Positions 1 through 16,934 of a DNA stretch of 18,343 bases are shown here, one piece after another (the first letter of the stretch is position 1; each line of letters begins with the position of its first letter). Made by a program: the position numbers and the translations under genes. Under the pieces are notes generated by a model. It was not told the DNA's origin, ran no database searches, and worked only from the letters and a program-made list of their open reading frames with translations. This DNA is from a virus (lineage: Duplodnaviria; Heunggongvirae; Uroviricota; Caudoviricetes): the IMG/VR virus record IMGVR_UViG_2541047726_000006, positions 1 to 18,343 of that record. One strand, given 5' to 3'.

Positions 1-1119
1 TCAAATAACCAACTTAACCCATTCCTGACCTCGAGTATCGTTATAGCGATCGGTGGTTGCCTGGACTTTATGTCCTAGTAATGTTTTTGTATCGATACCC
101 TGTGCACGGTACAGCCGTTCTGATAGAGAGCGTTGTTCATGAAATGTTGGCGGAGTTTTTCCTGCTGGTGGAATTATCCCAGCCAGATCCCGTGCTTTGG
201 CAAAGTAGTCGCTCAGGTTGTCTTTACTCATCGGCTTCGGTTGTTTCTGGTGCCGACTATGGATTAGATATGGACTTAATATTCTGTCTCGGCACCCATC
301 AATAACTTCTTTTAACGTTATCCCAATGGCATCACAGCGTAGTGTAAGCGGTAACGCCAGACGCATTCCGGTTTTTCCCTGGGTGATATGCAAGTGTTCG
401 TTCCACACATCTGAAAAACGCATGTGGCAAATGTCATCACGGCGCTGACCAGTAACAATCGCAAGAAGCATTGCGTTACGGATAAAGTGTTTTTCAGGCG
501 TTGCATTGTAAATTTTTTGCCAGTCTTCCATGGTGAGCCTGGCTCTGGTTACTTTAGGGATCGGTTTACGGGTAGCCTCCGGAGGATTCCATCCAGGAGG
601 AACTTCCCCTGCATGCTGTGCTTCTTTATAAATATCAACCCATAATCCACGATTTACTCTCGCTGTGCTGACCATGTCTTTATCCAGCCACTCATCCAGT
701 ATTAATGCAAAGTCTCTTACTTCCAGTTCTTTCAATGGGTGGTTTCCCAGACGGGAAACCAGGTATGCAGCCATTCGAGTTTTTTCTTTGTGAGTTGTAG
801 CTGCAATATCTCCATTTTTCAGTCGCGTGTCCTGTATTTTCAGATATCGATCAACCCATGCCTTTAATCTGATACCCCGACGTTTTGTTGCTGACGGACT
901 TTCATCAATTTTGCGCATGAAATATTCAGCTTCTGCTGCAGCTATTCGCTGATTGGCTGTGGAAGCGATTTTTTCTGCCTTACCTTTGTCTGTTCCGAGT
1001 CCGTGAAATTTTCCAGTCACAGGATTTTTATACTGGTAGTAAACTCTGCCAGTTCTGCGATCAAACTTTTCGTAAAGACCGGCTACGTCAGTGCTGTTTT
1101 TTCGTGGCCTCGGTGACAT
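1..1119 (-). CDS. int: Phage tyrosine integrase, lambda Int family, complete (stop at 1-3)
   Basis: 372-aa ORF. C-terminus FHEQRSLSERLY...LLGHKVQATTDRYNDTRGQEW matches the lambda Int catalytic block (H-x-x-R and the nucleophilic Tyr) as recalled. Last gene of the leftward arm, so attL should lie just outside the window. Confidence 0.93.
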   Translation of the reverse strand: MSPRPRKNSTDVAGLYEKFDRRTGRVYYQYKNPVTGKFHGLGTDKGKAEKIASTANQRIAAAEAEYFMRKIDESPSATKRRGIRLKAWVDRYLKIQDTRLKNGDIAATTHKEKTRMAAYLVSRLGNHPLKELEVRDFALILDEWLDKDMVSTARVNRGLWVDIYKEAQHAGEVPPGWNPPEATRKPIPKVTRARLTMEDWQKIYNATPEKHFIRNAMLLAIVTGQRRDDICHMRFSDVWNEHLHITQGKTGMRLALPLTLRCDAIGITLKEVIDGCRDRILSPYLIHSRHQKQPKPMSKDNLSDYFAKARDLAGIIPPAGKTPPTFHEQRSLSERLYRAQGIDTKTLLGHKVQATTDRYNDTRGQEWVKLVI

Positions 1120-1418: not shown

Positions 1419-3857
1419 TTAAAAATCAGCCTGACTCGGGATCAGTTTTTGCCAGATAACTGAAACGTATTTTGCCTGGTAACGGGCGTCATCAAGTGCA
1501 TTATGGCGCTCACCTTCGAATGGAATAGCCGTTCTGGCATCGAAGTCTATGGCTTTCCCCAGCTCAACGATTGTGCGTACATCTCGATCGTTGTAGTAAC
1601 GCCACGGGCAGGGGATCCCCTGCCGTTCGTATGAACGGCGCAAAATCGTGTTGTCGAAGTTGGCTCCATTTCCCCAGACCTGAACAAAAAATTCACCGGA
1701 GTTTTCGTCGATAAATTCCCGCAATTGTAACAGTGCATCATCTAACGGGATTTCATCGGTCATAATGGCAGATTGCGCTTCGCGTGATTGCTTAAGCCAC
1801 CATTTAATGGTGTCCCGATCAATGACCCCGCCAGCAGTTTCCAGATCGATAGTCTTACTAAATTCCGGTCCCATATCTCCGGTTTGCGGATCGAAAAATA
1901 TTGCACCTATTGAGATGATCGGGGCATCAGGATTTTTTCCCATGGTTTCAAGGTCGATCATTAGATGGTCACACGTCCTGCTGGTGGATGTGATAACATG
2001 ATGACCGTTCACCGTAATTAAGGGATCTGCCGTCTCGCCAGTTTCACTATCGCTGGCGTGATCCTGAGCGCTGCCAGCATTCTCCTTGTGTGGATGTTCA
2101 GCGCCTTCCATTTCCTTCGGATCATTTTCCTGAACTTCAACCTGATTCTCTTCATCGAATGTTTCCTGGTATGTTGCGTCGCCCATCACCGCGCCACAAT
2201 CAGGGCAGTTGCCGCCGCCGGTCTGACCGCAGGCGGTGCAGATCTTTTCCGGTTCCTGTTGCACTACTGGTTCAGGTTGTTTCGTTTCTGGCTCGTTTTG
2301 TAACGCATTTGGGCTGTTTTGTTCCGCTTTCTGGTCGTTCTGTTCCGATTCTTGCTGGTTCTGGTTTACAGAATCGCGGGTTTCAATCCCCTTTACCCAT
2401 TTCGGATCATTCGGGTCGCTAATCCCTGCAACAAATTCTCCGCGAGAGGCAGCAAGCAACTTATCGGCGTCAGGCTGGCTGATATTGGCTGCCTGCATAA
2501 TTTTGTTTACTTCGTCAGCGGTAACTTTTACCTGTGACTTGTCATCCAGCGGCTGCGGGTCCTGATGATGTTCAACTGTATCCGCTGCCATTGTTTCAGC
2601 CGTTGCCTGTTCATCTGCCATTGCGCCAGATGGTTGCGGGTTATCTTCATCATTTTTTTCTTCTTCTGTTTTGCACTCAGCAGCCAGTCCGCCGTTAATT
2701 TCTTCCAGGATATCTTTTTCCGGTGTATGCCGGGCAGCCATGAGCGTTTCAGCTGTGGGATTCTCGTGATCAGTTTCTGTCAGGTTGGCATTGATATACC
2801 CCTGAAGGCGCCCCGGGTAGTGATAAAACTCAGGGTGGGCGCTTCGGATAAGTGCAAAAATAGCTGCGCGGGAATAGTCCAGGATACCAGGGGTTGCGCG
2901 AAGTGCTGCGGACCATTCCCTGAACGGACTTTCTTTTTTCAGGACGATTTCTTTTGCGCGACGATAAACGCTGCCCGGAATTTCATAAATATTAAAATCC
3001 ATCGGAAGTGTGGCTGCTGCAATCTCCACATCCAGCGCATCGAAGGTGTGTACTAAATTCGGATTGCGATCGGTTTTGTTCCCGCCACCGGCATTTGCAC
3101 CGGAAGCCGTACGGGTGATACGCGAAACACGATTTCCTTTCATCCACTCTTTTGTCAGCAGACCCCGATCAGTGTAATCAGCGTCCAGGTATGCCTCGAA
3201 AAAAGCAGTTATCAGTCCCAGGTCTGAATTACCGGGATTAGGGAAAACTTTGTCAGTGTCGCGTACCAGTTTGTGAAGGTCGCGAATCTCCAGCGGGTCG
3301 AGCAGCTTTGTTTTGTGAGAAATGGCCAGGGCAGTAACAGCCGGCAGTTCTTCCGCCCGTGCTATATGTAATGCCTGAAGTTCTTCCCGTGCAACGTGCG
3401 TTACTGGTTTTTCGCTGCTGTGTTGCGCAAGCCAGCGAATGGGCAGCTCCTGACCAGAAACCGGCAGGAGCATATTCTCCTCAATCTCCGTCATGTCTTC
3501 GCCGTTGACGTTGGTATTGTCAGTACTGGCTGGTTTCTCCTGCACGGAGGGAGAGGGCGCGATAAATACCATTGTAATGCCATCTTCCCCGCCTTTTTCG
3601 TATCGGTTGCAGAATTCGGTATCAAACACGCCTTCAGGTGGAAGGTCATTCACAACGGGTAAATGGACGCGAACGGGTTTTTTAAAGTCGTCTTCATCAT
3701 AATCGTTGTCATCCATTGCGGTAATGCAGCGGGAGATGGCAACAGATAATTTTTTTGCTGTAGTCCAGTAAAAACCACCTTTAATTCCCAGACGTTTTCT
3801 GACTTTGTCATTTTTTGCTTCGCAATATAGCGCAAATTCTTCTTTATCAGTGCTCAT
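1419..3857 (-). CDS. Prophage exonuclease: RecE-like N-terminal region fused to a DEDDh (DnaQ-like) 3'-5' exonuclease domain
   Basis: 812-aa ORF with a GAGGT Shine-Dalgarno before the ATG at 3857. The C-terminal 180 aa carry the three DEDDh motifs: MIDLETMG (Exo I), [12 protein letters not shown] (Exo II), [13 protein letters not shown] (Exo III). N-terminal and central segments ([47 protein letters not shown]) resemble RecE of the Rac prophage as I recall it. Confidence 0.8.
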
Positions 3858-4501: not shown

Positions 4502-4559
4502 AAAAAGGGCGGCAGAGCAGTCACGGAGTAAAACTGATACCGCCAAACGTCACCAGAAA
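4502..4559 (-). ncRNA. dicF: DicF small RNA (ftsZ-targeting sRNA)
   Basis: The reverse complement of 4502-4559 reads TTTCTGGTGACGTTTGGCGGTATCAGTTTTACTCCGTGACTGCTCTGCCGCCCTTTTT, which matches the DicF sequence I recall, including the terminal GC stem and U-run. Ends are approximate because DicF is processed from the operon transcript. Confidence 0.85.
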
Positions 4560-4898: not shown

Positions 4899-6222
<1,324 letters not shown>

Positions 6223-8089: not shown

Positions 8090-8392
8090 ATGACATTAAA
8101 AGAGTTTATTAAATCATTAAGGGTTGGTGATGCTAAGAAATTCGCGGCCAGACTTGGTGTATCGCCATCTTACTTATCGCAAATGGCGTCTGGACGAACA
8201 GCTATATCTCCAACCCGCGCCCTTATGATCGAATCTGCGACGGAAGGCCAAGTAAGTAGGGCGGAGCTACGACCCCATGATTGGGAGCTTATTTGGCCTG
8301 AGTATGCGAGCGGCATTCGTTTGGGGCAAACACATGTAGTTCATGCTGAAGGTGATTGTAGTACATGCTTATCTGATGGAGTTGATTCATGA
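8090..8392 (+). CDS. Cro-like / YdaS-family HTH regulator
   Basis: 100-aa ORF with a GAGGAAGG Shine-Dalgarno. The segment LGVSPSYLSQMASGRTAISPTRALMIESATEGQVSRAELRP resembles Rac YdaS. It is divergent from the repressor, in the cro position. Confidence 0.7.
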   Translation: MTLKEFIKSLRVGDAKKFAARLGVSPSYLSQMASGRTAISPTRALMIESATEGQVSRAELRPHDWELIWPEYASGIRLGQTHVVHAEGDCSTCLSDGVDS

Positions 8393-8814
8393 AAATCAAG
8401 CATGAACACATCCGCATGGCGATGAATGTCTGGGCGCATCCGGACGGCGAAAAAGTACCGGCTGCGAAAATTACCAAAGCGTATTTCGAGCTGGGAATGA
8501 CGTTCCCGGAACTGTATGACGACAGCCATCCGGAAGCCCTGGCCCGTAATACCCAGAAAATTTTCCGTTGGCTGGATAAAGACACCCCTGATGCTGTTGA
8601 AAAAATGCAGGCTCTGTTACCGGCGATCGAAAAGGCGATGCCGCCTTTGCTGGTGGCCCGTATGCGCAGCCACAGTTCTGAATATTACCGTGAGATCGTC
8701 GAACGGAGGGATCGGCTGGTGAAGGATGTCGATGATTTTGTTGCGTCAGCGGTTGTTTTGTATGACCAGATGAATCGCGGCGGCCCGGCAGGGAATGCTG
8801 TGGTGATGCACTAA
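8389..8814 (+). CDS. YdaT-like protein (cII-position gene)
   Basis: 141-aa ORF starting MKIKHEHI, which is the YdaT N-terminus as I recall it. Its start overlaps the cro-like stop (ATGA). Confidence 0.65.
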   Translation: MKIKHEHIRMAMNVWAHPDGEKVPAAKITKAYFELGMTFPELYDDSHPEALARNTQKIFRWLDKDTPDAVEKMQALLPAIEKAMPPLLVARMRSHSSEYYREIVERRDRLVKDVDDFVASAVVLYDQMNRGGPAGNAVVMH

Positions 8815-8836
8815 AAGCACGGTGTTCGGGGGTTTT

Positions 8837-9799
8837 ATGAGCAGCAAGCTTCATGGTCTTGTCTGGGAAGGGTGCGCCTTCACCGGCATGATCTTATCCA
8901 GGGTGGCGGTTATGGCCCGTCTTGCAGACTACAGCAATGACGAGGGTGTGTCATGGCCTGCCATTGAAACTATCCGGCGTCAGATCGGTGCAAGAAGTGA
9001 ATCCACAGTGAAATCGGCTATTGCAGAACTGGCGAAAGAGGGCTGGCTGACGAAGGAAGAGCGTAAGGTCGGTGGGCGTAATGTAAGCAATATCTATCGG
9101 CTTAATGTGGAAAAACTCGAAGCAGCTGCGGCGGCGGCGCGTGAGTCATATAAACCGAAAAGAAAAATTAGCCCGGCAAAAAATGACCCGTTAACAGTTG
9201 ACCCGTCAAATATTGACCCCTCAACGGTTGACCCGTCAAATTTTGATGGATCAACTGTTGATAAAAAACTGCCGATTAGGGGGGCGATGATTGACCCCGA
9301 TCCGTCAGTATTAAAACCTGATCCGTCAGATAAAAGATCTTCTTGTCCGGACGCTTCGCAACCGGACCCGCAGACGGCTGAACAGGATTTTTTAACCCGA
9401 CACCCTGACGCGGTTGTGTTCAGTGCGAAAAAACGCCAGTGGGGAAGTCAGGAAGATTTGGTGTGCGCACAGTGGATCTGGGGACGAATCGTGAGTCTTT
9501 ACGAGCAGGCGGCCAGCTATGATGGCGAGATCACTAGACCGAAAGAACCCAACTGGACAGCATGGGCCAATGACGTTCGCACAATGCGGATGCTGGATGG
9601 CAGAACTCACAGACAAATTTGTGAAATGTTTGGGCGTCTCCAGCGGGATTCGTTCTGGGTAAAAAACATCATGAGTCCGGCAAAACTCCGGGAAAAATGG
9701 GATGAACTGGTTATCCGCCTGGGGCGTTCGCCTGCGCAGCGTTGCGTGAATCACATTTCTGAACCGGACACTGAAATACCGCCGGGATTCAGGGGGTGA
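8837..9799 (+). CDS. Replication initiator, O-like, with an N-terminal winged helix and a DnaT-like C-terminal region
   Basis: ATG at 8837 (the track ORF begins at an upstream GTG at 8822). The central peptide repeats DPLTV-DPSNI-DPSTV-DPSNF-DGSTV are encoded by DNA iterons. It precedes the DnaC-like gene. Confidence 0.75.
   Translation: MSSKLHGLVWEGCAFTGMILSRVAVMARLADYSNDEGVSWPAIETIRRQIGARSESTVKSAIAELAKEGWLTKEERKVGGRNVSNIYRLNVEKLEAAAAAARESYKPKRKISPAKNDPLTVDPSNIDPSTVDPSNFDGSTVDKKLPIRGAMIDPDPSVLKPDPSDKRSSCPDASQPDPQTAEQDFLTRHPDAVVFSAKKRQWGSQEDLVCAQWIWGRIVSLYEQAASYDGEITRPKEPNWTAWANDVRTMRMLDGRTHRQICEMFGRLQRDSFWVKNIMSPAKLREKWDELVIRLGRSPAQRCVNHISEPDTEIPPGFRG
9184..9258 (+). repeat. Five tandem 15-bp iterons (TGACCCGTCAAAT-like), putative phage origin inside the O-like gene
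   Basis: TGACCCGTTAACAGT, TGACCCGTCAAATAT, TGACCCCTCAACGGT, TGACCCGTCAAATTT, TGATGGATCAACTGT, followed by the A-rich TGATAAAAAACTG. This is analogous to lambda ori lying within gene O. Confidence 0.55.
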
Positions 9800-9805
9800 C
9801 GTGTC

Positions 9806-10552
9806 ATGAAAAACATTGCGGCAGTTGGGGTTCTTGAACGTATTCGCAGACTTGCACCACAGGGGGCGGTTCCACCGTACCGGACGGTGGAGGAGTGGCG
9901 GGAATGGCAACTTGCTGAAGGACGAAAACGCAGCGAGGAGATTAACCGCCAGAATCGCCAGTTGCGGGTGGAAAAAATCCTGAATCGTTCGGGCATCCAG
10001 CCTCTGCACAGCAAATGCTCGTTTGCAAATTATCAGGTGCAGAACGACGGGCAAAAATACGCGCTGAGCCAGGCCAAATCCATAGCTGACGAACTGATGA
10101 CCGGGTGCACGAATTTTGTGTTCAGCGGTAAAACCGGCACCGGGAAAAATCACCTTGCAGCGGCGATGGGCAACCGGCTGATGGTGAAGGGGCGCAGCGT
10201 GATTATCGTCACCGTGTCTGACGTCATGAGCGTGTTGCATGACAGCTACGACAACGGCAAATCCGGGGAAAAATTTTTACAGGAGCTTTGCGGGGTTGAT
10301 TTGCTGGTCCTGGATGAAATAGGCGTTCAGCGGGAGACGAAAAACGAGCAGGTGGTATTGCACCAGATAATTGATCGCCGGACAGCATCACTGTGCAGTG
10401 TCGGGATGTTAACAAACCTGAATCATGCCGCAATGAGTACGCTTCTTGGTGAGAGGATTATGGACCGCATGACCATGAACGGTGGTCGATGGGTGACGTT
10501 TAACTGGGATAGCTGGCGTCCAAATGTCAGCAATATGAGGGTTGTGAAGTAA
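9806..10552 (+). CDS. DnaC-like helicase loader (IstB-type AAA+ ATPase)
   Basis: 248-aa ORF with an AGGGGG Shine-Dalgarno. Walker A FSGKTGTGKNHLAAA and Walker B LLVLDEIG. Sits in the YdaV/DnaC position after the O-like gene. Confidence 0.9.
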   Translation: MKNIAAVGVLERIRRLAPQGAVPPYRTVEEWREWQLAEGRKRSEEINRQNRQLRVEKILNRSGIQPLHSKCSFANYQVQNDGQKYALSQAKSIADELMTGCTNFVFSGKTGTGKNHLAAAMGNRLMVKGRSVIIVTVSDVMSVLHDSYDNGKSGEKFLQELCGVDLLVLDEIGVQRETKNEQVVLHQIIDRRTASLCSVGMLTNLNHAAMSTLLGERIMDRMTMNGGRWVTFNWDSWRPNVSNMRVVK

Positions 10553-10573: not shown

Positions 10574-11344
10574 ATGGAAACCGTATCTGACGCACTGAAA
10601 GCACTGAAAAAAGCCTCTTCACATGTGGTGGCAGCTCGCCTTGGAATCAGTCGTGAAGAGGCTGTCAACGAGCTGTGGGAACTCAAAAGAAAAGGCGTCG
10701 TTGATAAAACTGGTCACACCTGGTTTCTGGCTGGCGAAGGTGAATCCCGGGTAACCGAAGAGCGGCCAGTAAAATCTGAAGCACAGGATATGCTGACCGG
10801 GGAGGTCGAACAAAAAGTTACCGCAGACATGATGATTGAGTTTATCGGTCAGGATGGGGCTAAAACGTGTGAGGAACTGGCGGGTAAGTTCGGTGTCAGT
10901 ACTCGCAAGGTTGCTTCCACGCTGGCGGTGGTAACCGCAACGGGGCGGCTGGCACGCGTTAATCAGAACGGTAAATTTCGTTACTGCATGCCGGGCGATA
11001 ATTTACCAGCAGAGCCGAAAGCCGCGCTGGTAACGGAAAGTGATGGTAAGGCCTTTCCTCAGCCAGCAGGTGCTGCGTTACCAGTCCGGGAAGCCGCAAC
11101 ACAGGAAGAAATTAAAACAGAAACTGTGGCGGACATTGTGCAGCCGTTGCCATCGTTTACCGAAACGCAAGCAGATGAGCTGATTTTTCCGTCCCTTCGC
11201 AGGGCAAACCTGGCGCTGCGCAGGGCGAAAAGTGATGTTCAGAAGTGGGAGCGAGTCTGCGCCGCGCTGCGGGAGCTGAACAAGCACCGGGATATTGTTC
11301 GACAGATTACTGATTCTTCCCGCCGTGTTGTATCGGAAAAGTGA
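10574..11344 (+). CDS. Hypothetical protein with two tandem winged-helix-like repeats
   Basis: 256-aa ORF with GGAGGA 8 nt upstream. Internal repeat: VVAARLGISREEAVNELWELKRKGVVDKTGHTWFLAGEG versus TCEELAGKFGVSTRKVASTLAVVTATGRLARVNQNGKFRYCMPGD. Confidence 0.7.
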   Translation: METVSDALKALKKASSHVVAARLGISREEAVNELWELKRKGVVDKTGHTWFLAGEGESRVTEERPVKSEAQDMLTGEVEQKVTADMMIEFIGQDGAKTCEELAGKFGVSTRKVASTLAVVTATGRLARVNQNGKFRYCMPGDNLPAEPKAALVTESDGKAFPQPAGAALPVREAATQEEIKTETVADIVQPLPSFTETQADELIFPSLRRANLALRRAKSDVQKWERVCAALRELNKHRDIVRQITDSSRRVVSEK

Positions 11345-11359
11345 TTGCCGGAGGCGCTT

Positions 11360-11752
11360 ATGGCAAAAGTATTTACACCAGAAGAGCGGGAAGAAGTGAA
11401 GGCGCGCATTGTGGAATTCGTGCGCCTGAGCGGACGAGAAACTTTTCGACAACTGGCAGATAAAACGGGTGTCAGTAAGACCGCTATTCGTCGTTTATCT
11501 GGTGCGCTTGCGGCCAGTGGTGATGTCTGGCTCTCTGGTTGCGGGGTATTTCCATCAGAGCAGGTGTATCGCGTATGGCGTAAGACACCGGAGAAGGCTG
11601 CTGACCCGACACTGATTCGAAAGTTACCTGACGGAGAAATACGTCGTTACAACAGACGGCAGAACATAATTTGTCGTGAGTGCCGCCAGAGCGAAGTTAT
11701 GCAGCGTGTGCTGGCGTTCTATCGGGGAAACTTTCAGGAGGTGATGGAGTGA
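11360..11752 (+). CDS. Hypothetical protein with a winged-helix-like segment related to the upstream gene
   Basis: 130-aa product from the ATG at 11360 with a GGAGG Shine-Dalgarno. The segment ETFRQLADKTGVSKTAIRRLSGALAASGDVWLSGCG resembles the repeats of the preceding protein. Confidence 0.6.
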   Translation: MAKVFTPEEREEVKARIVEFVRLSGRETFRQLADKTGVSKTAIRRLSGALAASGDVWLSGCGVFPSEQVYRVWRKTPEKAADPTLIRKLPDGEIRRYNRRQNIICRECRQSEVMQRVLAFYRGNFQEVME

Positions 11753-12045
11753 GGGTCAGAGTTTATATTGCCGGTCCAATGACGGGATATGAAAATTTCA
11801 ACCGTGAGGCGTTTCACAAGGCGGAAGAGGAACTGAAACGGGAAGGGCATACCGTCTTAAACCCGGCAGTACTTCCGGACGGGCTGACACAGCCGCACTA
11901 CATGGATATTTGCATGGCAATGATTCGTTGTGTGGATGCGATTTACATGCTGAATGGCTGGCAGCGGTCAGCGGGCGCTAAGGCAGAGCTGGCACTGGCG
12001 GAGAAACTGGGGCATGCAGTGATTTATCAGGAGGTGGCTCAATGA
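11749..12045 (+). CDS. DUF4406-like protein (nucleoside 2-deoxyribosyltransferase-like fold)
   Basis: GTG start at 11749 with AGGAGG at 11735-11740. The product VRVYIAGPMTGYENFNREAFHKAEEELKREGHTVLNPA...DAIYMLNGWQRSAGAKAELALAEKLGHAVIY fits the DUF4406 pattern as I recall it. Confidence 0.65.
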   Translation: MRVRVYIAGPMTGYENFNREAFHKAEEELKREGHTVLNPAVLPDGLTQPHYMDICMAMIRCVDAIYMLNGWQRSAGAKAELALAEKLGHAVIYQEVAQ

Positions 12046-12503
12046 GAGAGGTTAACTATGAGGCGCTTCGTGAGGCAGCACAAAACTATCAGTCGACGCT
12101 GGCGTGGTATCAGGCTATCCCGGACAGCCCAAATGCTGAACGGGATTGTGATGCGGCTCTTGCTGCGTTTAAGCGTCACATCCGTCATCGGGAAGCGGAT
12201 ATTATCGCTGATTTGCTGGATGGACTGGAAGAAGCAAAATCACAACTCAAAGAGCAGCGTGAGTATTACGAAGGCGTTATCTCTGATGGGAGCAAGCGTA
12301 TTGCTGAACTGGAAGCGCGGGAAGTTCAATTACCGACTCGCTACGACCTTCGATATGGACACCCGATAAATGCAGATGAGCGACATGTCATGATACCTAA
12401 AGAAAATGGCAGTTGGCTTTACCTGATTGACCTAGAACACGCATTACGCGTCTCTGGCATTCGCATCAAAGGAGAGGAGCATGGAAATAAAACCAGAGGA
12501 TGA
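12042..12503 (+). CDS. Hypothetical protein
   Basis: 153-aa ORF with a CAGGAGGTGG Shine-Dalgarno. No family recognised. Confidence 0.6.
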   Translation: MREVNYEALREAAQNYQSTLAWYQAIPDSPNAERDCDAALAAFKRHIRHREADIIADLLDGLEEAKSQLKEQREYYEGVISDGSKRIAELEAREVQLPTRYDLRYGHPINADERHVMIPKENGSWLYLIDLEHALRVSGIRIKGEEHGNKTRG

Positions 12504-12837
12504 GTTAAGCAATATCGTTTTATTTCCGGTAAAAGAGGATGACCCTCGTAATCAGGTTAATTTTCTTTATGAGCCATCGGAAAGACCATATTGTCATCAC
12601 GCCTCTGTCCGGGTTGACGAAAAAGAGCGTCAGGTCCGCTGTAAAATCTGCGGTGCAGTTGTGGAGCCATTTGACTGGATGCTCTCTGTGGCGAAAAGAG
12701 AAACCAGACTGGCAGATGATGTAAGGCACTTGCGCCAGGAGGAGCGGGAAAGGCGAAAAAATATAGAAAAGCTAATTCAGATTGAGCGTAACGCGAAAGC
12801 GCGGATACGCAGGGCGACAAAATCCAGAACTGAATAA
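12481..12837 (+). CDS. Hypothetical protein with a putative zinc ribbon (CHH...CxxC) and a basic coiled-coil tail
   Basis: 118-aa ORF with an AGGAGAGGAG Shine-Dalgarno. Motif YCHHASVRVDEKERQVRCKICGAV, then an Arg/Lys/Glu-rich C-terminus. Confidence 0.6.
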   Translation: MEIKPEDELSNIVLFPVKEDDPRNQVNFLYEPSERPYCHHASVRVDEKERQVRCKICGAVVEPFDWMLSVAKRETRLADDVRHLRQEERERRKNIEKLIQIERNAKARIRRATKSRTE

Positions 12838-14145: not shown

Positions 14146-14237
14146 CGGTTTGCGGGGAAATCTTAGTTAAGTAGAATAACTGCGGGTGCTTGAGGCTATC
14201 TGTCTCAGGCATGAACACCAAAAGGCAGATAGAGAAA

Positions 14238-14302
14238 AGCCCCAGTTAACATTACGCGTCCTGCAAGACGCTTAACATTAATCTGAGGCCATATCTATGC
14301 GA
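14238..14302 (-). ncRNA. sok: Putative Sok-like antisense RNA, position inferred only
   Basis: By analogy with plasmid R1 hok/sok, the antisense RNA should cover the mok leader and start region. A candidate minus-strand -35 TTGACC is the complement of 14334-14339. Ends are not determined. Confidence 0.25.
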
Positions 14303-14356
14303 CACATAGAGATTAGCCTCTTACGGACCGAAAGGTCAAGGAGAAGCAGGCTATGA
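14297..14356 (+). CDS. mok: Short mok-like leader ORF (19 codons) ending in overlap with the hok start
   Basis: ATG at 14297 preceded by GAGG; encodes MRHIEISLLRTERSRRSRL and stops at TGA 14354-14356, overlapping the hok ATG at 14353 (ATGA). Confidence 0.3.
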   Translation: MRHIEISLLRTERSRRSRL

Positions 14357-14955: not shown

Positions 14956-16002
14956 GTGCGGGTATTACTTCGACCTGTTCTGGTACCGGAACTCGGGCTG
15001 GTGATCGTTAAGCCGGGCCGTGAATCCATGCCGGTATTCCACAATACCCGGGTACTGGTGGAGCCGGAACCGAAAAGCATGCGTAATCTGCCGTCCGGGG
15101 TCGTTCCTGCCGTTCGCCAGCCGCTGGCGGAGGATAAATCATTACTGCCATTTTTCAGCGACGAACGAGTGATTCGTGCTGCTGGTGGCGCTGGCGCATT
15201 GTCTGACTGGTTACTGCGCCATGTTAAATCCTGCCAGTGGCCACACGGCGATTATCACCACAGTGAAACCGTCATTCACCGTTATGGTACCGGCGCAATG
15301 GTGTTGTGCTGGCACTGCGACAACCAGCTGCGCGACCAGACCTCCGAATCACTCGGGCAACTTGCTCACCAAAACCTGTCTGCATGGATGATTGACGTCA
15401 TACGCCATGCAATGAATGGCTCGCAGGAACGGGAATTATCGCTGGCTGAATTATCCTGGTGGGCGGTCCGCAATCAGGTGGCGGACGCGCTACCGGAAGC
15501 GGTATTACGTCGTTCGCTGGGGTTGCGTGCGGAAAAAATCCGCTCAATGTACCGTGAAAGCGACATCGTACCGGGAGAGCAGACCGCCACCAGCATACTG
15601 AAGCAGCGCACAAAAAATCTTGCGCCGCTGCCTCACGCCCACCAGCAAAACCCGCCACAGGAAGAGACGGTGGTCAGCATTGCCGTTGATCCTGAGTCTC
15701 CGGAATCTTTCATGAAACGACCTAAACGTCGCCGCTGGGTTAACGAGAAATACACACGCTGGGTGAAGACACAGCCGTGTGCGTGTTGTGGTAAGCCAGC
15801 CGACGATCCCCATCACCTGATTGGTCATGGTCAGGGCGGAATGGGGACAAAATCTCACGATATTTTCACGCTACCGCTGTGTCGGGAGCATCACAACGAG
15901 CTTCATGCGGATCCTCTGGCGTTCGAAGAAAAGCATGGTTCTCAGGTTGATTTAATTTTTCGTTTTCTTGATCACGCCTTTGCAACTGGCGTGCTTGGGT
16001 AA
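14956..16002 (+). CDS. YdfU-like DUF968 protein with a C-terminal Cys/His-rich motif
   Basis: 348-aa ORF with a GTG start and a GGAGG Shine-Dalgarno. C-terminal motif CACCGKPADDPHHLIGHGQGGMGTKSHDIFTLPLCREHHNELH. Size and position match Qin YdfU. Confidence 0.75.
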   Translation: MRVLLRPVLVPELGLVIVKPGRESMPVFHNTRVLVEPEPKSMRNLPSGVVPAVRQPLAEDKSLLPFFSDERVIRAAGGAGALSDWLLRHVKSCQWPHGDYHHSETVIHRYGTGAMVLCWHCDNQLRDQTSESLGQLAHQNLSAWMIDVIRHAMNGSQERELSLAELSWWAVRNQVADALPEAVLRRSLGLRAEKIRSMYRESDIVPGEQTATSILKQRTKNLAPLPHAHQQNPPQEETVVSIAVDPESPESFMKRPKRRRWVNEKYTRWVKTQPCACCGKPADDPHHLIGHGQGGMGTKSHDIFTLPLCREHHNELHADPLAFEEKHGSQVDLIFRFLDHAFATGVLG

Positions 16003-16014
16003 AAGAGGTGACTG

Positions 16015-16374
16015 ATGCTCATAGATTTGGTTTTACCTTACCCGCCGACGGTGAACACTTACTGGCGACGCCGTGGCAGCACATATTTTATCTCGGAGGA
16101 GGGAAAGCGTTATCGCCGGGCTGTGGCGCTTATTGTTCGCCAGCAGCGGCTGAAATTAAGCCTGTCCGGAAGGCTGGCGATAAAGGTGATTGCAGAGCCA
16201 CCGGATAAGCGTCGTCGCGACCTGGACAATATCCTGAAAGCACCGCTGGATGCGCTGACGCATGCGGGAGTGCTCATTGATGACGAGCAGTTTGATGAAA
16301 TCAATATTGTACGTGGTCAGCCAGTATCTGGTGGACGGCTGGGTGTGAAGATTTACAAAATTGAGAGTGAGTGA
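16015..16374 (+). CDS. rusA: RusA Holliday-junction resolvase
   Basis: 119-aa ORF with an AAGAGGTG Shine-Dalgarno. The motif DKRRRDLDNILKAPLDALTHAGVLIDDEQ matches the RusA catalytic region (RRRDLDN). Confidence 0.9.
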   Translation: MLIDLVLPYPPTVNTYWRRRGSTYFISEEGKRYRRAVALIVRQQRLKLSLSGRLAIKVIAEPPDKRRRDLDNILKAPLDALTHAGVLIDDEQFDEINIVRGQPVSGGRLGVKIYKIESE

Positions 16375-16382
16375 GCGTAAAT

Positions 16383-16934
16383 ATGATATATCCGGAAATT
16401 ACAGGCAAAAGCGGCGAACATTTACGCCTGAACACGCTGGAAGCAGTCTGGATCCAGGGGAAATTACGGATGTGGGGGCGGTGGTCGTATATCGGTGGGG
16501 GTAAATCCGGAAATATGTTTAACCGGTTACTGGTTTCGAAAAAGCTGACGAAAACAGCAGTTAATGAGGTTTTACGCAGAATGAAGAAATCCGGGCTGGA
16601 AAAACCGGAACTTGAGGCATTTTTTCGGGATATGACAAGAGGAAAGCAGAAGAGCTGGTTGTCACATTGTACAGACACAGAGGCGTTGATTATTGATCGC
16701 GTTATCAGTGAGGTGCTTGGGGAATATCCCGGGCTAATCAATGTTCTCCGGCAAAGGTACGAAGGACGGGGAATGAGCAAACTGAAAATGGCCGAAAGGT
16801 TAAATGCAGATCATCCTGATTGGTCGTTGGTTACGTGCAGACGCCGAATTGATCAATGGTTGGGGGTATCTGAATTTATGTTATATGCCCCCATGCGCAT
16901 GGCTTTTGTTACAGAGAAAAATGTTGCAAACTGA
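16383..16934 (+). CDS. Putative late-gene antiterminator Q-like protein (by position)
   Basis: 183-aa product from the ATG at 16383; an in-frame GTG at 16371 overlaps the rusA stop. Immediately downstream of rusA and upstream of a short region ending in a strong terminator, as for Q, PR' and tR'. Confidence 0.4.
   Translation: MIYPEITGKSGEHLRLNTLEAVWIQGKLRMWGRWSYIGGGKSGNMFNRLLVSKKLTKTAVNEVLRRMKKSGLEKPELEAFFRDMTRGKQKSWLSHCTDTEALIIDRVISEVLGEYPGLINVLRQRYEGRGMSKLKMAERLNADHPDWSLVTCRRRIDQWLGVSEFMLYAPMRMAFVTEKNVAN

Follow-up and report, generated by a model that had tools for sequence, protein, structure and literature searches.

A DUF4406 gene in the early-right operon of a Rac-like prophage encodes a predicted nucleoside deoxyribosyltransferase-fold protein that may act on deoxynucleoside monophosphates

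The catalytic triad of DNPH1 consists of Y24, D80 and E104, and the 5'-phosphate is held by S98 and S128' (PMC10603095). In MilB, S97 is the equivalent of DNPH1 S98, and Phe17 replaces the Tyr to accept ribose (PMC10603095). Indeed, the preference for deoxyribose or ribose is set by Tyr versus Phe (PMC7308715), and the F17Y substitution in MilB flips the sugar preference (PMC10603095; PMC7308715). Nucleoside 2'-deoxyribosyltransferases (NDTs) bind the free 5'-OH through an Asp or Asn, and nucleotide enzymes have uncharged residues at that position; moreover, a Pro conserved in the transferases excludes water (PMC12884076). The NDT-like phage protein DmtZ is both a dAMP hydrolase and a deoxyribose-5-phosphate (dR5P) transferase, with an uncharged phosphate pocket and Pro57 (PMC12884076). 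For DUF4406, PF14359 and DUF1937/PA1492, our literature searches returned passing mentions only, with neither functional data nor a DUF4406 assay.

We investigated a DUF4406 gene in a window of viral DNA, by which we mean the whole 18,343-nt stretch that was analysed. The gene occupies positions 11749-12045 on the plus strand, with a GTG start at 11749 and 98 codons followed by a TGA stop (12043-12045). The features that define it are as follows.

11736..11741, plus strand: ribosome-binding site AGGAGG, 7 nt before GTG 11749, read directly from the sequence and kept in close relatives
11749..12045, plus strand: DUF4406 coding sequence, 98 aa and TGA, supported by Pfam, RefSeq, purifying selection and the AlphaFold2 model (pLDDT 90.9)

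The mechanical open reading frame opens upstream, at GTG 11680, and the biological start is GTG 11749. Among the candidate starts, only this codon keeps the conserved N-terminal strand (Y6, G9); starting at the next in-frame ATG, which encodes Met11, would lose that strand. Close relatives keep a caggagg-N7-9-GTG arrangement behind two different upstream genes, and in more distant relatives the start lies two codons later, at ATG or GTG, yielding 'MKIYIAGP'. In genomes that match all 297 bases, RefSeq contains the same CDS at identical coordinates (WP_001266130.1, 'DUF4406 domain-containing protein'). The GTG start proposed in the first-pass annotation of this DNA was thus confirmed by the ribosome-binding site, by RefSeq and by its conservation in relatives. 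We observed pairwise dN/dS values of 0.02-0.2 for about 40 distinct homologues with estimable dS, and the gene is under purifying selection. Most viral-contig matches were near-identical E. coli prophage fragments, which served the start-codon and dN/dS work and not the assessment of context diversity. At the same locus, short open reading frames on the opposite strand (38-49 aa) were unsupported, and a search of Rfam gave zero family matches.

The protein matched the Pfam DUF4406 profile (PF14359) with an E value of 5.7e-38 and 129.7 bits (gathering cutoff, 22 bits), over profile positions 2-91 of 91. The proposed DUF4406 membership therefore held over the full profile, at a significance far beyond chance, and this is almost certainly a real gene and a true member of the family. 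Residue conservation was assessed over 26 close relatives and 134 distant representatives, and the window protein has every family-conserved residue (Y-I-A-G-P-M-[TS]-G, N-R, F22, N-P-A, L-P-x-G-L, Y51, M58, W71 and S-x-G-A-x-x-E). With a full-length profile match and the same length as WP_001266130.1, it is a typical member that shows no difference. The gene is present in 1210 of 5426 complete E. coli genomes (about 22%), and many E. coli chromosomes are 100% identical across the 297 bases. As a genome feature it is thus already known and ordinary, with nothing new about it. The family itself comprises 12,253 clusters at 50% identity (E<=1e-3), with homologues in phages of Vibrio, Arthrobacter, Mycobacterium, Aeromonas, Pseudomonas, Klebsiella and others.

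PHROG 355, labelled 'nucleoside 2-deoxyribosyltransferase', was matched at E 3e-48, and weak sub-threshold cross-matches were observed for DUF1937, DUF7768 and Nuc_deoxyrib_tr (PF05014); the last of these scored 14.4 bits (E 0.042), below its gathering cutoff of 28.8 bits. Scans of the protein with NCBIfam and with PADLOC, a library of defence and not of anti-defence proteins, gave zero matches.

The fold of the protein was predicted with AlphaFold2 from a 26-sequence alignment. The resulting model was confident (pLDDT 90.9, pTM 0.84) and showed four strands alternating with three helices, the fourth and last strand ending at residue 93 of 98. In a Foldseek search against the PDB, the T. brucei purine deoxyribosyltransferase (TbPDT, 2a0k) was the best match (E 1e-4), and human and rat DNPH1/Rcl and the CMP N-glycosidases MilB and BcmB also matched (TM 0.62-0.79). 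This is the flavodoxin-like alpha/beta fold shared by N-(deoxy)ribosyltransferase-like superfamily members (clan CL0498 in Pfam). Absent from the model was the C-terminal stretch with which strict NDTs contribute residues to the active site of the neighbouring subunit, and the structural targets are 130-160 residues long.

Residues were then compared with those of characterized enzymes. A single-sequence search of the PDB sequences returned nothing relevant, and NDTs and CMP glycosidases were reached by the family profile only, in which 50 family sequences were combined. Using this profile, 'YIAGP' and the Glu aligned with TbPDT (E 1.3e-4), the best sequence-level PDB match, and S74-x-G-A-x-x-E80 (S-x-G-[AT]-x-x-E in the family) aligned with S-P-G-T-H-x-E of BcmB, BlsM and MilB. 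In the same search, two protozoan transferases, TbPDT and LmPDT, had an Asp at the position equivalent to Ser74. The family was also aligned by hhalign with human DNPH1 and with DmtZ of phage Ghobes (sequence from KX557278). These alignments were statistically weak (E 0.05-0.07); the equivalences were mutually consistent and also in line with the motif anchors and the fold match. The numbering of the human DNPH1 query matched all residue numbers quoted in PMC10603095. The equivalences are listed below.

11764..11766, plus strand: codon of Tyr6, aligned with DNPH1 Y24, DmtZ Y6 and the Tyr of TbPDT 'YIAGP'; position of the catalytic-triad Tyr
Thr12: aligned with DNPH1 R30, MilB R23 and DmtZ D12
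11863..11865, plus strand: codon of Pro39, aligned with DNPH1 E55, DmtZ P57 and the Pro of TbPDT 'LIPTDN' after strand 2
11911..11913, plus strand: codon of Cys55, aligned with DNPH1 D80 and DmtZ N77 (third triad residue), a low-confidence alignment in helix 2
11968..11970, plus strand: codon of Ser74, aligned with DNPH1 S98, DmtZ T97 and the phosphate-binding Ser of MilB, BlsM and BcmB, and with Asp in strict NDTs
11986..11988, plus strand: codon of Glu80, aligned with the covalent nucleophile Glu of NDTs, TbPDT, BcmB, BlsM and MilB, with DNPH1 E104 and with DmtZ E103

Tyr6 lies at the end of strand 1, where the superfamily has its triad Tyr (or Phe); at this position, 87% of the DUF4406 family have Tyr and 13% have Phe. 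Glu80, where the helix following strand 3 begins, has the location of the superfamily nucleophile and was found in 133 of 134 representatives. Six residues before this Glu, Ser74 occupies the 5'-phosphate-pocket position of the (d)NMP N-glycosidases and was invariant (134/134 representatives); it stands in place of the Asp or Asn with which strict NDTs bind the free 5'-OH. Pro39 was 98% conserved among the 134 representatives. At position 12, where the (d)NMP N-glycosidases have their substrate-contacting Arg, 93% of the family carry Thr or Ser. The triad Asp/Asn expected in helix 2 was not found either, the residue aligned there, in a low-confidence register, being Cys55. Across the family, 65% of members have Cys and 20% have Asp at position 55, only 44% have Asp at position 53, and many have no Asp at either. 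The DUF4406 protein very probably has an NDT-superfamily fold with a Glu nucleophile.

The alignments of Tyr6, Glu80, Ser74 and Pro39 favour an enzyme that acts on deoxynucleoside monophosphates (dNMPs). The best explanation that we can offer, and which we put forward tentatively, is that the DUF4406 protein would act on 2'-deoxynucleoside 5'-monophosphates, either as a hydrolase or as a deoxyribose-5-phosphate transferase. That the substrate is a 5'-phosphorylated deoxynucleotide is suggested by the same positions, and we hold this still a little more loosely. In such a reaction, Glu80 would attack C1' of the 2'-deoxyribonucleotide and form a covalent deoxyribosyl-enzyme intermediate. Tyr6 would position the Glu and select deoxyribose, and the 5'-phosphate would be accommodated by Ser74 together with the Gly9-Pro-Met-Thr12-Gly13 loop. 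The base would then be released, and the deoxyribose-5-phosphate would pass to water, as in a DNPH1-like dNMP N-glycosidase, or to another base, as in a DmtZ-like transferase. The products would be a free base and deoxyribose 5-phosphate or, by base exchange, a new dNMP. The presence of Pro39 hints at the DmtZ-like route of base transfer.

Several findings count against a dNMP-acting enzyme. The triad Asp/Asn is not conserved, with Cys55 aligned in its place, and Thr12 replaces the Arg that contacts the phosphate in MilB (R23) or recognizes the base in DNPH1 (R30). Moreover, the protein lacks the C-terminal extension by which DNPH1 (S128') and NDTs complete the neighbouring active site, and its top sequence-level PDB match is a nucleoside transferase and not a nucleotide hydrolase. 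Finally, no conserved partner gene or informative fusion indicates the substrate. We found no conserved partner gene in phiKO2, Vibrio H20, Gaia, EdgarPoe, Powerpuff, Orisa01 and Abidatro, where the placement in early, replication or recombination regions was the only common trait. None of the 20 longer DUF4406 members checked carried a domain fusion hinting at a substrate: 19 had only DUF4406-clan domains (DUF4406, with weak cross-matches to DUF1937, PF05014 or DUF7768) and one had a C-terminal HTH_3 domain. These longer members are probably, for the most part, read-throughs of gene calling. Two GenBank names of homologues, 'MazG-like protein' in Pseudomonas phage Orisa01 and 'deoxycytidylate deaminase' in Arthrobacter phage Abidatro, were rejected as mislabels; both are small stand-alone genes and not fusions.

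A strict nucleoside 2'-deoxyribosyltransferase, which would serve salvage by exchanging bases between free deoxynucleosides, is an unlikely alternative to the dNMP-acting enzyme. This activity is named by the PHROG 355 label and by the GenBank labels of many homologues, TbPDT was the top PDB match both in sequence and in Foldseek, and Tyr6, Pro39 and Glu80 match transferase residues. However, the labels have been passed on by similarity, and the PF05014 score of 14.4 bits is half of the 28.8-bit cutoff. The Asp that binds the 5'-OH is replaced by the invariant Ser74, as in nucleotide-specific enzymes (PMC12884076), the triad Asp is missing, and the model lacks the C-terminal part through which NDTs complete their active site in trans. 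The first-pass annotation had called the protein nucleoside deoxyribosyltransferase-like; this description stood for the fold and failed for the strict NDT family, given the sub-threshold PF05014 score and the Ser in place of the 5'-OH Asp. In that description, 'nucleoside' is probably better taken as 'nucleotide', judging from the aligned residues.

We consider it distinctly improbable that the gene encodes a phage counter-defence protein, that is, a TIR/SLOG-like enzyme or a sponge for an immune signal derived from NAD+/ADP-ribose or for another nucleotide signal. A small stand-alone accessory gene in the variable early region of temperate phages would be consistent with such a function. However, TIRs scored lower than NDT, DNPH1 and MilB in the comparisons, and the YIAGP and S-x-G-A-x-x-E motifs are of the NDT type and do not resemble the context of the TIR catalytic Glu. 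Linkage to defence or anti-defence genes was not seen, and PADLOC, with its library restricted to defence proteins, gave no match.

The genomic context of the gene was then considered. The window covers the left half of a Rac-like lambdoid prophage, with the following features.

1-1119, minus strand: integrase
directly after the integrase in feature order, minus strand: excisionase
1419-3857, minus strand: RecE-like exonuclease
4507-4558, minus strand: DicF sRNA
5075-5893, minus strand: IS3-family transposase
8090-8814, plus strand: YdaS/YdaT-like pair of regulators
8822-9799, plus strand: replication initiator
9806-10552, plus strand: DnaC/IstB-like ATPase (DnaC-like loader)
10574-11344, plus strand: DUF1627
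11360-11752, plus strand: DUF977 family protein, upstream neighbour in the operon (Pfam DUF977, E 1.8e-41; RefSeq start ATG 11360)
11749..11752, plus strand: GTGA overlap of the DUF4406 start with the TGA stop of the DUF977 gene (sequence, RefSeq CDS boundaries)
12042..12045, plus strand: ATGA overlap of the DUF4406 stop with the ATG of the Ead/Ea22-like gene (sequence)
12042-12503, plus strand: Ead/Ea22-like protein, downstream neighbour in the operon (PF13935, E 9.5e-12; RefSeq)
14184-14355, plus strand: hok/sok
14956-16002, plus strand: DUF968
16015-16374, plus strand: RusA
16371-16934, plus strand: DUF1133/Q-like antiterminator

The early-right operon thus runs from the YdaS/YdaT-like regulators through the replication initiator, the DnaC-like loader, DUF1627, DUF977, DUF4406 and the Ea22-like gene to RusA and the Q-like antiterminator. 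For the DUF977 gene, the mechanical open reading frame begins at TTG 11345 and the RefSeq start is ATG 11360. The GTGA overlap suggests that translation of the DUF4406 gene may be coupled to that of DUF977. A search for promoter-like and terminator-like sites between 8117 and 13224 came back empty, and the GC content of the DUF4406 gene (0.527) matched that of the upstream genes (0.52-0.55). Since the gene shares 4 nt with each of its neighbours, lies in a region free of such sites and matches its surroundings in GC, it is an internal gene of the early-right operon and not an autonomous moron. It is a bona fide accessory gene of the Rac-like lambdoid prophage, read within this operon. The label 'moron' given in the first pass was therefore dropped: although mosaic presence and absence among lambdoid prophages and, as far as known, dispensability for core phage functions would suit a moron in the strict sense, independently transcribed, expressed from the prophage and benefiting the lysogen, this is very improbable for a gene with the operon traits just described inside a pR-type early operon, which the prophage repressor would silence.

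In unrelated phages, the homologues lie in replication or recombination modules, adjoining a helicase, exonuclease, dNMP kinase, RusA, NinB or NinG. A dNMP-acting enzyme might edit or sanitise the dNMP pool during phage DNA replication, and this role fits the presence of homologues beside such genes. Thus, the nucleotide-pool role proposed in the first pass is plausible, given the conserved Tyr, the Glu nucleophile and the placement of homologues in replication and recombination modules. A broader and rather doubtful extension is that DUF4406 proteins would be very widespread minimal (~95 aa) dR5P transferases or dNMP N-glycosidases that combine a Tyr-Glu pair with the non-canonical Cys55 and a Pro of the transferase type. 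Early in infection, temperate phages from many bacterial phyla would employ them either to remodel the dNMP pool or to break down a host signal derived from a nucleotide.

What this analysis adds is a sharper substrate prediction for a large DUF family of >12,000 50%-identity clusters. The pattern of Tyr6, Pro39, Ser74 and Glu80 predicts an enzyme for 5'-phosphorylated deoxynucleotides and not the nucleoside transferase named in many phage records. If this is true, a common annotation would be corrected, and DUF4406 would provide the second natural phage NDT-fold enzyme acting on dNMPs, after DmtZ.

Among known systems, the NDTs (PF05014; T. brucei PDT 2a0k, L. leichmannii NDT) share with the DUF4406 protein the fold, the 'YIAGP' start, the Pro after strand 2 and the Glu nucleophile. 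In contrast to them, it has a Ser for the 5'-OH-binding Asp, no conserved triad Asp and a sub-threshold score, and the C-terminal third is missing. Its match to DUF1937 (PDB 1t1j, P. aeruginosa PA1492) was below the family cutoff, and DUF1937 gives no functional information because it is itself uncharacterised.

The nucleotide hydrolases DNPH1/Rcl, MilB, BlsM and BcmB are 130-190 aa long and carry a C-terminal helical extension, whereas the DUF4406 protein has ~98 aa and no such extension. The triad Asp aligns with Cys55 and the Arg (DNPH1 R30, MilB R23) with Thr12, and the water-activating Glu55 of DNPH1 is replaced by Pro39 at the same site. In the comparison with this group too, the DUF4406 protein lies below the PF05014 threshold.

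DmtZ, from Z-genome actinophages, differs in its length of 161 aa, and its sequence relationship to the DUF4406 protein is not significant (hhalign E 0.07). We rejected DmtZ as a member of DUF4406, as it has no DUF4406 Pfam match. It occurs linked or fused to DutZ and PurZ0. The window gene lacks partners of this kind, and the prophage shows no sign of a pathway for modified bases; neither the RefSeq annotation of near-identical prophages nor the Pfam scans, which covered 15 window open reading frames, named a dUTPase-like or PurA-like gene. The likeness to DmtZ lies in a phage-encoded NDT fold with the Tyr and the Glu nucleophile, and it extends to an uncharged phosphate-pocket residue (Thr97 in DmtZ, Ser74 here), a transferase-type Pro (Pro57 in DmtZ, Pro39 here) and a third triad residue other than Asp (Asn77 in DmtZ, Cys55 here).

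In close relatives (loci L017, L018, L022 and L025-L027, among others), the gene that precedes the DUF4406 gene is not DUF977 but a different one, with the context 'ttcgacaggagggttcaggaGTG'. The mosaic junction is thus located where the DUF4406 gene has its ribosome-binding site and its start codon. The 3' neighbours are variable as well. In the window itself, the start of the upstream DUF977 gene (+ strand) was placed at a TTG at 11345 by a mechanical ORF finder versus an ATG at 11360 by RefSeq, the latter giving a CDS of 393 nt. On the downstream side, the end of the Ea22-like gene overlaps by 23 nt with the following ORF:

12481-12837, + strand, 118-aa ORF, annotated by RefSeq as 'hypothetical protein'

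This ORF showed a weak zinc-ribbon match (TFIIB Zn_Ribbon, E 1.6e-4), which was below the cutoff.

When the DUF4406 protein was searched against phages by tblastn, the matches ended at query residue 74, with two exceptions, namely, the match to Rac-SA53, which was 95% identical, and a short partial match covering query residues 3-40 only. The Ala-rich C-terminal helix of the query (SAGAKAELALAEKLG) appears to have been masked by the BLAST low-complexity filter, and the coverage figures of this search are therefore lower than the true alignment length. Two of the phage homologues were deposited under other names: Orisa01_00067 (PP179329.1), a 42-aa fragment call, as 'MazG-like protein' and ABIDATRO_53 (MF140397.1) as 'deoxycytidylate deaminase'. 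Both labels look like annotation errors.

Among the 20 proteins examined for domain fusions, a single one, P0227, a 182-aa protein from the search for family representatives, carried a recognisable partner from outside the DUF4406 clan. After its DUF4406 domain (residues 1-89) comes an HTH_3/HTH_19 domain of the XRE type (E 3e-14); the protein is a genuine fusion or else a product of read-through in gene calling.

Elsewhere in the prophage, we observed a transposase gene and two RNA features:

4507-4558, - strand, DicF antisense sRNA (Rfam RF00039, 76.7 bits against a cutoff of 48 bits)
5075-5893, - strand, IS3-family transposase, with small ORFs to about 6258 (Pfam rve, E 1e-31; rve_3; HTH_21)
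14184-14355, + strand, sok antitoxin RNA from a type I toxin-antitoxin locus, hok/sok (Rfam RF01794, 106.7 bits)

The transposase gene lies in the early-left region. The best whole-window match, genome H76, is without such a gene at the corresponding place; an IS3 element of the ISEc52 family is listed among the features under the match in another related genome, H77. At the place matching the sok RNA, RefSeq annotates hokD in related genomes. DicF is located in the dicB region, a region also observed in the related Rac/Qin-like prophages.
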